Below, one piece after another: positions 3,514-53,278 of a stretch of DNA of 64,000 nt. A program made the translations under genes and the position numbers. Origin of the DNA: Enterobacteria phage RB18; the sequence record NC_054906.1; one strand, given 5' to 3'. Numbering within the stretch: position 1 is the first letter of the stretch; every line of letters starts with the position of its first letter. The notes below the pieces were generated by a model that was not told the DNA's origin, did not search any database, and was given only the letters and a program-made list of their open reading frames with translations.

Positions 3514-3564
3514 AAGCCTTGCGGCAACCTTGTCGGGGTTCCACCTGCTAAGGCAAGTGTTTGT

Positions 3565-3656
3565 ACGAAACGCCGGGATTCGAACCCGGTTATTAAGCAG
3601 TTGACGCTACTTAATATTTTTAAAAGGCCATATCTCGACCATATCCGAACGTTCCG
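3565..3656 (-). ncRNA. tRNA-like small stable RNA (T-arm and acceptor stem present, no canonical anticodon arm)
   Basis: Minus strand has T-arm CCGGG-TTCGAAT-CCCGG and a 7-bp acceptor-like pairing CGGAACG/CGTTTCG, but the internal region does not fold as a standard cloverleaf; T4-type phages encode such stable RNAs next to the tRNA cluster. Confidence 0.4.
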
Positions 3657-3822
3657 TCAAAAACGCTACTCGGCTTACGGCAAAGATATTTCCTCGAATC
3701 GATAATTCGGTGCGCCGTTTCTGCTGTGATGTAAGAGGGCATCAATAAACGCAAAGATTATTAACGCAATTCCTTACTCAGGGAACATCAGTCCGACGAC
3801 TTACCGGTAGCGACCCGGTTTC

Positions 3823-4173
3823 TTAATATTCTTTTAAAGCATCAATCTGCTCACGGCGTTTACGCCACAAATCAATTGCTTCATACGCGGATTCAGCATT
3901 TCGAATTAGCCGGCATTTATGTAAAGACTTATGATTTTGATATTGTGTAGATAACGGAATTTTATCTAAAAGGTCTTTACGTTCAAAGTATTCGTAACCA
4001 TCTAAGCCAAATGAACGATTTTTAAGAAATTGCCAATGACCATATTCGTTTTCGATATAAACATAATCTGCGTGCTGATAAAGCAAATTAATTACGCGTT
4101 CAGAAATAACAGTGTCATTGTGATTAAAATAGAATGTTAAATCATGAACTACTAAATAAACATTACCTTTCAT
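3823..4173 (-). CDS. hypothetical protein (116 aa) within the tRNA region
   Basis: ORF with ATG start between the tRNA-like RNA and tRNA-Arg. Confidence 0.5.
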   Translation of the reverse strand: MKGNVYLVVHDLTFYFNHNDTVISERVINLLYQHADYVYIENEYGHWQFLKNRSFGLDGYEYFERKDLLDKIPLSTQYQNHKSLHKCRLIRNAESAYEAIDLWRKRREQIDALKEY

Positions 4174-4271: not shown

Positions 4272-4347
4272 TGGGGTGACCGATGGGAGTCGAACCCATG
4301 ACTACGAGAATCACAATCTCGAGTTCTACCAACTGAACTACGGCCAC
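4272..4347 (-). tRNA. tRNA-His (anticodon GUG)
   Basis: Hand-folded cloverleaf: acceptor GTGGCCG/CGGTCAC, anticodon loop TTGTGAT, T-loop GGGTTCGACTCCC, encoded CCA. Confidence 0.75.
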
Positions 4348-4461
4348 ATTAATACCTACTCCAACAATCAAGATGTCTTCACACGAAATTAAGAGAAGAG
4401 TGATCAGTTCAACCCTTATAATCGCGTCAAGTAGATATTAATGTGACAGTTGTCACAAATT

Positions 4462-4536
4462 TGGCGGACGTGATAGGATTCGAACCTATAACCAATCGCT
4501 TAACAGGCGATCGCTCTGCCATTGAGCTACACATCC
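4462..4536 (-). tRNA. tRNA-Asn (anticodon GUU)
   Basis: Hand-folded cloverleaf: acceptor GGATGTG/CACGTCC, anticodon loop CTGTTAA, T-loop AGGTTCGAATCCT, encoded CCA. Confidence 0.75.
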
Positions 4537-4886: not shown

Positions 4887-5537
4887 TTATATATTGTTAA
4901 TTTGATTTAGAATTCTTTTTGCTTGAGTATGACTTACGCCAATATGCTTAGCATATTTAGACAATTCGCCACGTTTAGAAAAATCATATAATTTAGAAAT
5001 TTCTATTCTTCTTTTTCTTTCATCCGCAGAAACTTTTGCTTCGTTCGCTTTTGCTATTTTACGTTTAGCTTCTTGAGAATGAGTTTTACCAGCAAAGCCA
5101 TTCTTCATTAATCCATTTGAAGACCATCCTTTTAATTTTCCGTTAGAATGTGCCTTTTTAACACCCAATGAAATTAATTCGCGCTGCTGATCTGTCATAG
5201 GATAATTATTTATATGGTCCCATCCACCTTCACCTCCAAGTTTTAAATTATACACATCTGGTCTATTTAAAAACTCTTCTGTGACAATATTTTTCTCGGC
5301 TTCAAGCATAGATTCTTTATCGTCAAAATACTCTAATATTTCTTTAGAAAAATTTTCTATACCATATTTATCTTGGGCTCTTTTTAATAATTTACCAGAA
5401 CCCATATATCCATCATCTAAATTTTCGGTAGAATGCACACCAATATAAATTTTATTATTAATTTTATTTGTTATTTTATAAAGATAAAAATGCATATCAG
5501 TCCCTAATAAAGAACTGAGCGTCTCACGACGAGTCAT
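4887..5537 (-). CDS. segB: GIY-YIG homing endonuclease SegB-like, inserted within the tRNA cluster
   Basis: N-terminal GIY-YIG signature YLYKITNKINNKIYIGVHS...GYMGSG; basic C-terminal DNA-binding-like region; sits between tRNA-Gly and tRNA-Ser as segB does in T4-type phages; true start may be the internal ATG at 5495, which has a better Shine-Dalgarno. Confidence 0.8.
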   Translation of the reverse strand: MTRRETLSSLLGTDMHFYLYKITNKINNKIYIGVHSTENLDDGYMGSGKLLKRAQDKYGIENFSKEILEYFDDKESMLEAEKNIVTEEFLNRPDVYNLKLGGEGGWDHINNYPMTDQQRELISLGVKKAHSNGKLKGWSSNGLMKNGFAGKTHSQEAKRKIAKANEAKVSADERKRRIEISKLYDFSKRGELSKYAKHIGVSHTQAKRILNQINNI

Positions 5538-20279: not shown

Positions 20280-20305
20280 GGGAGCCCATGGGCTCCCTTT
20301 TTCTT
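20280..20305 (+). terminator. rho-independent terminator after gene 8
   Basis: Hairpin GGGAGCCCATGGGCTCCC followed by TTTTTCTT. Confidence 0.7.
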
Positions 20306-51509: not shown

Positions 51510-53278
51510 AAAAGCCACAAGAAATGCAAACGATGCGTAGAAAAGTTATTTCAGATAATAAACCAACACAGGAAGCGGCTAAATCTGCTTCTAACACTTT
51601 ATCTGGACTTAATGATATATCTACGAAATTGGATGATACTCAAGCTGCTTCTGAATTAATAGCTCAGACTGTTGAAGAAAAATCAAATGAAATAGTTGGA
51701 GCAATTGATAACGTTGAAAGCGCAGTAAGTGATACTACTGCCGGTTCTGAGTTAATTGCTGAAACTGTTGAAATTGGAAACAATATTAATAAAGAAATCG
51801 GTGAATCGCTCGGAAGCAAATTAGATAAATTAACAAGTTTACTGGAACAAAAAATTCAGACAGCTGGAATTCAGCAAACTGGAACGAGTTTAGCAGTAGT
51901 CGAAAATGCTATTCCTGTTAAAGTCGTCGAGGATGATACAGCTGAATCTGTGGGTCCTTTATTACCGGCTCCTGAAGCAGTTAATAATGATCCTGATGCT
52001 GATTTTTTCCCTACTCCTCAGCCAATTGAACCAAAACAAGAGTCTCCAGAAGAGAAGCAAAAAAGAGACGCATTTAACTTAAAATTATCTCAAGCTTTAG
52101 ATAAATTAACAAAGACAGTTGATTTCGGATTTAAGAAATCTATTTCAATTACTGATAAAATATCTAGCATGCTATTTAAGTATACCGTCAGTGCTGCTAT
52201 TGAAGCTGCTAAAATGGTTGCATTGATAATGGCTGTTGTTATTGGAATAGACCTGCTGATGGTTCATTTTAAATACTGGTCAGATAAATTTTCAAAAGCC
52301 TGGGATTTATTTAGCACTGATTTTAAAACTTTCTCAAGCGAAACAGGAACTTGGGGCCCTTTATTACAAAGCATCTTTGAATCTATTGATGAAATTAAAA
52401 AGTTCTGGGAAGCTGGAGATTGGGGCGGATTAACAGTAGCTATTGTTGAAGGGCTTGGAAGTGTTCTTTATAATTTAGGAGAGCTTATTCAATTAGGTAT
52501 GGCTAAATTATCTGCAGCAATTCTTCGAGTTATTCCTGGCATGAAGGATACTGCTGATGAAGTAGAAGGAAGAGCATTAGAAAATTTTCAAAATTCTACT
52601 GGAGCATCTCTTAATAAAGAAGACCAAGAAAAAGTAGCAAATTATCAAGATAAACGAATGAATGATGATCTTGGCCCAATAGCAAAAGGATTAGACAAAA
52701 TTGCGAACTGGAAAACTCGTGCATCTAACTGGATTCGTGGTGTAGATAATAAAGAAGCATTGACTACTGACGAAGAACGTGCAGCAGAAGAAGAAAAATT
52801 AAAACAACTTTCACCGGAAGAAAGAAAAAATGCTTTAATGAAAGCTAATGAAGCTCGTGCTGCGATGATTCGTTTTGAAAAATACGCTGATTCAGCTGAT
52901 ATGAGCAAAGACTCGACAGTTAAATCAATTGAAGCTGCTCATGAAGACCTTAAAAAACGAATGAATGATCCGGATTTAAATAATTCACCAGCAGTTAAAA
53001 AAGAACTTGCTTCTAGATTTGCTAAAATTGATGCCACTTATCAAGAGCTCAAGAAAAATCAACCTGAAGCAAAACCTGAAACTTCTGCTAAATCACCAGA
53101 AGCAAAACAGGTCCAGGTGATTGAAAAGAACAAAGCACAACAAGCTCCTGTTCAACAAGCATCTCCTTCAATCAATAATACTAATAATGTTATTAAGAAA
53201 AATACTGTCGTTCATAATATGACACCTGTCACAAGCACAACTGCTCCTGGTGTATTTGGTGCGACGGGAGTTAATTAA
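51506..53278 (+). CDS. 29: gp29 tail tube tape-measure / baseplate hub protein (590 aa)
   Basis: Size and order match T4 gp29; Ala/Glu/Lys-rich extended protein. Confidence 0.95.
   Translation: MKKPQEMQTMRRKVISDNKPTQEAAKSASNTLSGLNDISTKLDDTQAASELIAQTVEEKSNEIVGAIDNVESAVSDTTAGSELIAETVEIGNNINKEIGESLGSKLDKLTSLLEQKIQTAGIQQTGTSLAVVENAIPVKVVEDDTAESVGPLLPAPEAVNNDPDADFFPTPQPIEPKQESPEEKQKRDAFNLKLSQALDKLTKTVDFGFKKSISITDKISSMLFKYTVSAAIEAAKMVALIMAVVIGIDLLMVHFKYWSDKFSKAWDLFSTDFKTFSSETGTWGPLLQSIFESIDEIKKFWEAGDWGGLTVAIVEGLGSVLYNLGELIQLGMAKLSAAILRVIPGMKDTADEVEGRALENFQNSTGASLNKEDQEKVANYQDKRMNDDLGPIAKGLDKIANWKTRASNWIRGVDNKEALTTDEERAAEEEKLKQLSPEERKNALMKANEARAAMIRFEKYADSADMSKDSTVKSIEAAHEDLKKRMNDPDLNNSPAVKKELASRFAKIDATYQELKKNQPEAKPETSAKSPEAKQVQVIEKNKAQQAPVQQASPSINNTNNVIKKNTVVHNMTPVTSTTAPGVFGATGVN

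Follow-up and report, generated by a model that had tools for sequence, protein, structure and literature searches.

The species 1 and 2 RNAs of coliphage T4 (rnaC, rnaD) are small, stable molecules that are co-transcribed with the tRNA genes of the phage. The function of these tRNA-region RNAs has been unknown for decades, and no trans-acting RNA of a T4-type phage has been characterised (PMC3014915). At the DNA level, the endonuclease SegB acts in clusters of this kind: it recognises 27 bp that fall wholly within the tRNA-Asn gene, with the T-arm motif GGTTCRANTCC as their basis (PMC2330249), the motif described for SegB of T6 being RAWTSGAAC (PMC13096335). The window, i.e., the whole stretch of 64,000 nucleotides from Enterobacteria phage RB18 analysed here (NC_054906.1), belongs to Tequatrovirus, and its tRNA region is 98–99% identical to those of PBM-1, TadeuszReichstein, AR1 and others. 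The cluster has 10 tRNA genes, all on the minus strand and separated by spacers of a few nucleotides, in the order Gln, Leu, Gly, a seg ORF, Ser, Thr, Ile(CAU), Tyr, Asn, a 114-nt gap, His and Arg. The seg ORF codes for a GIY-YIG protein of 216 aa (4887–5537, minus strand) and carries the annotation of a homing endonuclease (in AR1, a segD-like one); its place between tRNA-Gly and tRNA-Ser differs from that of T4 segB, which sits between tRNA-Ile and tRNA-Arg. Homologues of T4 rnaC (97.8%, 3564–3702) and rnaD (99.1%, 3709–3823) are also found on the minus strand, downstream of a 116-aa ORF (3823–4173) that parts them from tRNA-Arg, and they are without an RNA-gene annotation in AR1 and TadeuszReichstein.

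The 114-nt gap is flanked upstream by tRNA-Asn (GUU; 4462–4536, minus strand, called with both ARAGORN and Rfam, with an encoded CCA end at 4462) and downstream by tRNA-His (GUG; 4272–4347, minus strand), and it bears no annotation in the relatives inspected. Read from tRNA-Asn on the minus strand, it comprises the tetranucleotide AAUU (4458–4461), which is predicted to be single-stranded, an imperfect inverted repeat with a predicted hairpin (4442–4457; RNA UGUGAC-AACU-GUCACA), and an unannotated three-way-junction RNA of about 94 nt (4348–4441) that is defined by its fold and covariation. A scan of the spacer on the minus strand predicted neither a promoter nor a terminator; thus, the repeat would be transcribed within the tRNA precursor. 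A promoter-like match over the repeat on the plus strand (TTGTCA at 4450) is at chance level, with 9 such matches found against 9.3 expected. An intrinsic terminator was rejected as an identity for the repeat, as no terminator-like site was called at 4442–4457 on either strand and the stem is followed by UUAAUAUC.

Folded in isolation, the 114-nt spacer forms the hairpin followed by the three-way junction at −33 kcal/mol (z = −4.55). The junction is closed by a 14-bp helix, P1 (4429–4442 with 4348–4361), from which extend an interrupted P2, with a basal (4423–4427 with 4381–4385) and a distal part (4409–4416 with 4392–4399), and a 4-bp P3 (4374–4377 with 4363–4366) capped by the 7-nt loop UCUUGAU, all on the minus strand. 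RNAalifold recovered the same three helices from nine sequences, including the interruption of P2, with compensatory changes at 9 pairs. When aligned with MAFFT, 14 distinct sequences show pairing in 90.9% of the cells, as against 33–49% in slid registers of the same alignment, and 8 of the 31 pairs change on both sides; in a model-fitted alignment, which adds one Winklervirus and one further Jiaodavirus member, this holds for 13 of the 29 pairs, and in both cases none of 500 shuffles came up to the observed values. Taken over these analyses, P1, P2 and P3 all have compensatory changes. A covariance model recovers members from six genera at 45–119 bits. Backed by this covariation, the junction RNA is to be regarded as a real RNA of Tequatrovirus, Karamvirus, Jiaodavirus, Gelderlandvirus, Winklervirus and a few Vequintavirinae.

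Several known identities were tried for this RNA and set aside. Rfam 15 offers no family for the element, the matches being to eukaryotic families at chance level (E of 1.5 and 3.7). A degenerate tRNA or pseudogene was rejected since neither ARAGORN nor the Rfam tRNA model calls a tRNA in 4348–4461, even at E up to 10; homology to T4 rnaC or rnaD fell with the lack of any BLAST or covariance-model match between the element and the T4 locus; and a hammerhead-like core noticed by eye (CUGAUCA...GAAG) has C in place of the conserved G8 and no Rfam match. Given the rnaC and rnaD homologues elsewhere in the window, the junction element would be a third, separate RNA. The literature search brought up neither an account of the element or its hairpin nor expression or end-mapping data for them, and we are apparently dealing with an unannotated and undescribed RNA family in the tRNA clusters of many T4-like phages. 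The apical loop of P2 (4392–4416; columns 41–50 of alignment A3) occurs in two forms, each with a 6-nt palindrome: UGAUCA in most genera and UCAUGA in Melville, ABTNLPp2, Ra_O-1, L031 and L180. The loop of P3 (4367–4373; columns 76–82 of alignment A3) reads UCAUGAU outside Tequatrovirus. The palindromes in the P2 and P3 loops hint at loop–loop pairing, which might be intra- or intermolecular, and the two P2 forms would need different registers for it. A search of the window for an antisense target of the P2 loop returned only the locus itself.

A BLAST search with the spacer found 354 phage records, and the tRNA genes on either side of the element differ among phages. It lies between Asn and His in most Tequatrovirus, between Asn and Arg in teqskov, REP2 and BCH953P2, between Gln and His in Karamvirus, Jiaodavirus and Winklervirus, and between Gly and Gln in the Vequintavirinae W70 and A7_1; in Gelderlandvirus (Melville, ABTNLPp2), Gln is followed by a further 113–216 nt, then by the element and His. 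This extra stretch, which has no annotation and separates tRNA-Gln from the junction RNA, is seen in Melville (L007, 1605–1721), L025 and L375, its carriers being Gelderlandvirus and a single phage contig of about 173 kb; L007 and L025 are near-identical over the 45 nt that immediately precede UGUCACA. The spacer matches phages of Klebsiella, Enterobacter and Salmonella at 78–89% similarity over the junction part, the match ending at the repeat. Among Vequintavirinae, four records carry the element between tRNA-Gly and tRNA-Gln (1036–1133 of L006 in Escherichia phage W70), with 86–88% identity to the Tequatrovirus version over about 76 aligned nt; such identity in an unrelated subfamily suggests a recent horizontal transfer of the RNA module. 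A tRNA-His-less subgroup of Tequatrovirus (teqskov, L009; REP2, L155; L156 and L250) has both the hairpin and the junction RNA, and there the 3' flank starts with UGUGAA, keeping 5 of the 6 leader pairs described below, with a different tRNA-Arg allele next. T4 lacks the element in a covariance-model search, and the primer coordinates in PMC2330249 suggest that T2L is also without it. A host origin was rejected, as none of 5,426 E. coli genomes matched the element. When metagenomes and GTDB genomes were scanned with patterns of the junction RNA, the matches were mostly due to chance, and an nhmmer filter kept seven metagenome contigs matching phage variants and no bacterial genome locus.

This is the setting of the repeat at 4442–4457, TGTGACAGTTGTCACA, that had first drawn attention to the locus. 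The first-pass annotation had described it as a perfect 16-bp palindrome with the half-sites, the 6-bp spacing and the A/T flanks of the E. coli CRP consensus, beginning 5 nt past the 3' end of tRNA-Asn inside the tRNA precursor. The CRP-like core TGTGA-N6-TCACA is indeed exact (10/10 core positions), with A/T flanks (TAA...AAT), and the location is right, in that four nucleotides (AAUU) intervene and the repeat starts at the fifth. It is not a perfect palindrome: its reverse complement, TGTGACAACTGTCACA, differs from it, as the two 7-nt arms enclose a non-symmetric GT centre. Nor does the argument that it is unlikely by chance survive, since inverted repeats of the same type are common in the window, where 13 with 7-nt arms and a 2-nt spacer are found against about 7.2 expected under a first-order Markov model. 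The 5-bp stem of the original description becomes 6 bp in the predicted fold (−7.2 kcal/mol), the 4-nt loop (AACU) being upheld, and among the three readings then offered, the RNA processing hairpin fits best, given that the repeat is on the transcribed strand, folds at this energy and varies mainly in its loop; the processing cut itself would be a step of the mechanism proposed below. As a palindrome, the repeat is unremarkable. There are seven truly perfect palindromic 16-mers in the window (at 20281, 23766, 34511, 48440, 55964, 57376 and 63443; about 1.8 expected), none of which is 4442–4457. A T run comes after the 16-mer at 20281, GGAGCCCATGGGCTCC, which has the look of a terminator. A pattern scan of viral contigs with TGTGACANNTGTCACA returned unrelated, scattered matches only.

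The hairpin has a much narrower distribution than the RNA that it precedes. Its 3' arm, UGUCACA (4442–4448, minus strand), stands directly before P1 in Tequatrovirus, Karamvirus and Gelderlandvirus, and the 5' arm, UGUGACA (4451–4457, minus strand), is found only in Tequatrovirus; thus, the dyad is a Tequatrovirus-specific 5' arm added to an older leader. Jiaodavirus, Winklervirus and W70 have P1 immediately after the CCA of the preceding tRNA. A 44-nt query spanning the repeat matched 196 phage records, all Tequatrovirus-like, with 176 of these identical over its length. Among the variants, which were sampled from GenBank phage records (a flank-anchored contig scan gave one Tequatrovirus contig), there are three loop alleles, AACU, AAUU and AGUU, as against a single stem change. 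The AAUU loop of VIPECOOM03 makes the repeat a true perfect 16-mer, and AGUU is shared by G157lw, teqskov, REP2 and BCH953P2. The stem change is a U-to-C in KarlGJung and L14, which leaves an A·C mismatch and weakens the hairpin to −2.7 kcal/mol; since these phages tolerate it, the hairpin is not essential. The sampled variants show no compensatory change in the stem, and as the carriers are close relatives (93–100% identical in the region), retention of the hairpin says little on selection. The pattern of a varying loop and a mostly unchanging stem fits a hairpin and, equally, a dyad protein site with a free centre.

What sets the older leader apart is its relation to the tRNA downstream. The GUCACA of the 3' arm is complementary to U(−1), G1, U2, G3, G4 and C5 of tRNA-His, so that in the unprocessed precursor six further pairs could bring P1 from 14 bp to 20 bp if the acceptor stem gave way. 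In the predicted free minimum-energy fold of the whole Asn-to-His precursor, this extended P1 is preferred, with the leader paired to positions −1 to 5 of tRNA-His and the hairpin not formed. In the alignment, Melville has A at position 4 of the tRNA and keeps the pairing, with U–A in place of U–G. In the distant Aeromonas phage Aeh1, a P1-like hairpin alone abuts tRNA-His, with a leader GUUACA opposite UGUGAC, although the match is weak (14 bits, E of about 0.01). When the cloverleaf of tRNA-His is imposed on the model, the native sequence takes up the correct fold at 2.6 kcal/mol above its free minimum; the gap is 6.2 kcal/mol with the 5' arm destroyed and 0.8 kcal/mol with the leader destroyed, these being model energies whose score does not take in tRNA tertiary structure.

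The tRNA-His concerned has peculiarities of its own. Bacterial HisRS normally needs G−1. The phage tRNA has U, not G, at this position (4346–4348, minus strand) and is hence without an encoded G−1, with C73 kept. A tRNA-His with U(−1) is seen in Tevenvirinae, Aeromonas phage Aeh1 and mycobacteriophage Bxz1, with such 5' ends at L004, L005, L007, L379, L381 and L382. In the sampled Tevenvirinae genera, U(−1) marks the end of the helix that closes the junction RNA.

In light of the above, a small hairpin within the RNA precursor of the tRNAs is the most probable identity of the "CRP-like palindrome", rather than a host-factor site on DNA. The more specific proposal that the repeat acts at the RNA level, by insulating the leader, holding a cut site open and capping the 5' end of the spacer RNA, is one that we place at about an even chance. 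On this proposal, the hairpin would form during transcription of the minus-strand precursor, directly 5' of the junction RNA. The older leader could otherwise engage the 5' strand of tRNA-His in the extended P1, and the Tequatrovirus 5' arm would provide it with a local partner that keeps it off that strand. The AAUU after tRNA-Asn would be left single-stranded for a cut of the RNase E type. The consensus for such cuts is RN↓WUU; thus, CCAA↓AUUU is a candidate site. The hairpin might then cap the 5' end of a released spacer RNA of about 110 nt, the 3' end of which would be made by RNase P at tRNA-His. The likeness to a CRP site would also find an explanation here, with the CACA and UGUG motifs going back to a leader that complements the GUGG at which tRNA-His starts and to the mirror image of this leader in the second arm, and the CRP look being a by-product.

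The alternative that survives best, and which we regard as a genuine possibility if a somewhat doubtful one, is that the repeat is a neutral scar: a single inverted duplication of UGUCACA in the ancestor of Tequatrovirus, for example through template switching or snap-back repair near a SegB break in tRNA-Asn, would have left a hairpin that may form and yet does nothing, persisting through the close kinship of its carriers. The confinement of the 5' arm to one clade, when the rest of the spacer RNA is wider, is as expected under such an origin, as are the absence of stem covariation, the two phages that tolerate a stem-breaking change and the abundance of inverted repeats of similar size in the window. 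The preferred break site of T4 SegB is in the 3' part of the adjacent tRNA-Asn (PMC2330249), and the position of the repeat at an inter-genus homology breakpoint, about 25–35 bp from the SegB cut, makes a repair-scar origin possible. Two observations weigh on the other side, neither of them strongly: the sampled variation falls mainly in the loop, and the modelled effect of the 5' arm on correct folding is about 3.6 kcal/mol.

A broader reading, which we consider unlikely, takes the hairpin and the 94-nt junction as one new non-coding RNA of phages, a module that would move from one tRNA gene to another. By pairing with the start of tRNA-His, its leader and closing helix might control the folding or cutting of the U(−1) tRNA, or the released RNA might be a stable effector, e.g., an anti-defence decoy; the Tequatrovirus 5' arm would then act as a switch that releases tRNA-His.

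Much less probable again is that the repeat serves as a DNA target or recombination boundary, i.e., a homing-endonuclease site or a module junction in phage exchange. It sits exactly where homology between genera breaks, with a different upstream tRNA and the same downstream RNA, and the cluster holds a GIY-YIG seg gene. We know of no enzyme for the repeat sequence. SegB-type enzymes cut at tRNA 3' ends, with tRNA-Asn preferred in T2L, and the T2L site resembles the present locus in belonging to the same tRNA cluster and in adjoining the same tRNA gene; however, its recognition rests wholly on the tRNA gene and its T-arm motif, and the repeat lies outside (PMC2330249). The repeat at 4442–4457 contains neither GGTTCRANTCC nor RAWTSGAAC, so that the homing-endonuclease site offered as one of the first readings goes unsupported as far as SegB is concerned.

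The weakest of the alternatives, a host CRP–cAMP site on phage DNA that would act as a class II activator of an internal promoter or as a roadblock, is improbable in the extreme, as its dyad belongs to one clade and no conserved promoter accompanies it. Its attraction lies in the exact core with A/T-rich flanks and in a −10-like TATAAG (4415–4420, minus strand), the only such hexamer at this spacing, which gives the dyad in this genome a centre at −41.5 and thereby the geometry of a class II site. Yet this hexamer does not end in the important T, near relatives have TATAGG or TATCGG in its place, and AR1 shows a 1-nt deletion there. The promoter scan called no minus-strand promoter at this spot, and transcription beginning near 4408 would start within the conserved junction RNA; unlike an E. 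coli CRP–cAMP operator, the site lies within a conserved RNA transcription unit and matches only 13 of the 22 positions of the extended consensus AAATGTGATCTAGATCACATTT. When conservation was checked, the dyad proved to be absent in five other genera with the same spacer RNA (Karamvirus, Jiaodavirus, Gelderlandvirus and Winklervirus among those keeping the locus), and one half-site has become TGTGG in KarlGJung and L14. T4-type phages also modify the alpha subunit of RNA polymerase early in infection, a further point against activation by CRP. The DNA itself would be heavily modified: T-even DNA carries glucosyl-hydroxymethylcytosine, as stated for T6 (PMC13096335), and four modified C in the two half-sites would probably hinder CRP. 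Judged by counts of consensus matches, CRP-like sites are not enriched in the window: cores with at most one mismatch occur twice against 2.43 expected. The exact core is rarer by chance than the palindrome, with one found against 0.09 expected and at least one in 9 of 100 shuffles. The second CRP-like dyad, with one mismatch, is TATGACACCTGTCACA at 53218–53233. The host-factor site of the first-pass annotation is thus not borne out, and the resemblance to CRP is in all likelihood coincidental.

As a CRP site, the repeat would have been ordinary; its value is in pointing to the adjacent RNA. The observation is useful in that it flags an RNA family inside the tRNA clusters of T4-like phages: about 350 sequenced members, many of them candidates for therapy, carry the junction RNA, nearly always joined directly to tRNA-His at its 5' end. 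The natural variants with and without the hairpin, with and without tRNA-His and with either P2 form offer a tractable system for studying the role of such an RNA in tRNA maturation. The same system also suits the study of the contest with tRNA-targeting host defences.

Among described systems, the junction RNA is closest by position to the T4 species 1 and 2 RNAs, to which, as far as the comparison of sequences and models goes, it is not homologous. Like these, it would be a structured non-tRNA RNA lying by tRNA genes on the same strand, and the likeness to rnaD extends to a short hairpin near the 5' end and to a start a few nucleotides past the CCA of a tRNA. The differences are that the two share no sequence or model similarity, that T4 itself is without the junction element, and that the junction RNA is a species predicted from sequence. 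A second parallel might be struck with the RNase E-type cuts in tRNA spacers and with 5' stem-loops, as in E. coli tRNA operons and the ompA leader, where an AU-rich stretch is followed by a stem-loop at the 5' edge of an RNA; the hairpin here is short in comparison and absent in related genera in which P1 abuts CCA, and its cut is a putative one. Finally, the leader UGUCACA has two mutually exclusive partners, the 5' arm and the acceptor strand of tRNA-His, and in this it recalls the competing helices of terminator/antiterminator switches, a likeness of logic only.
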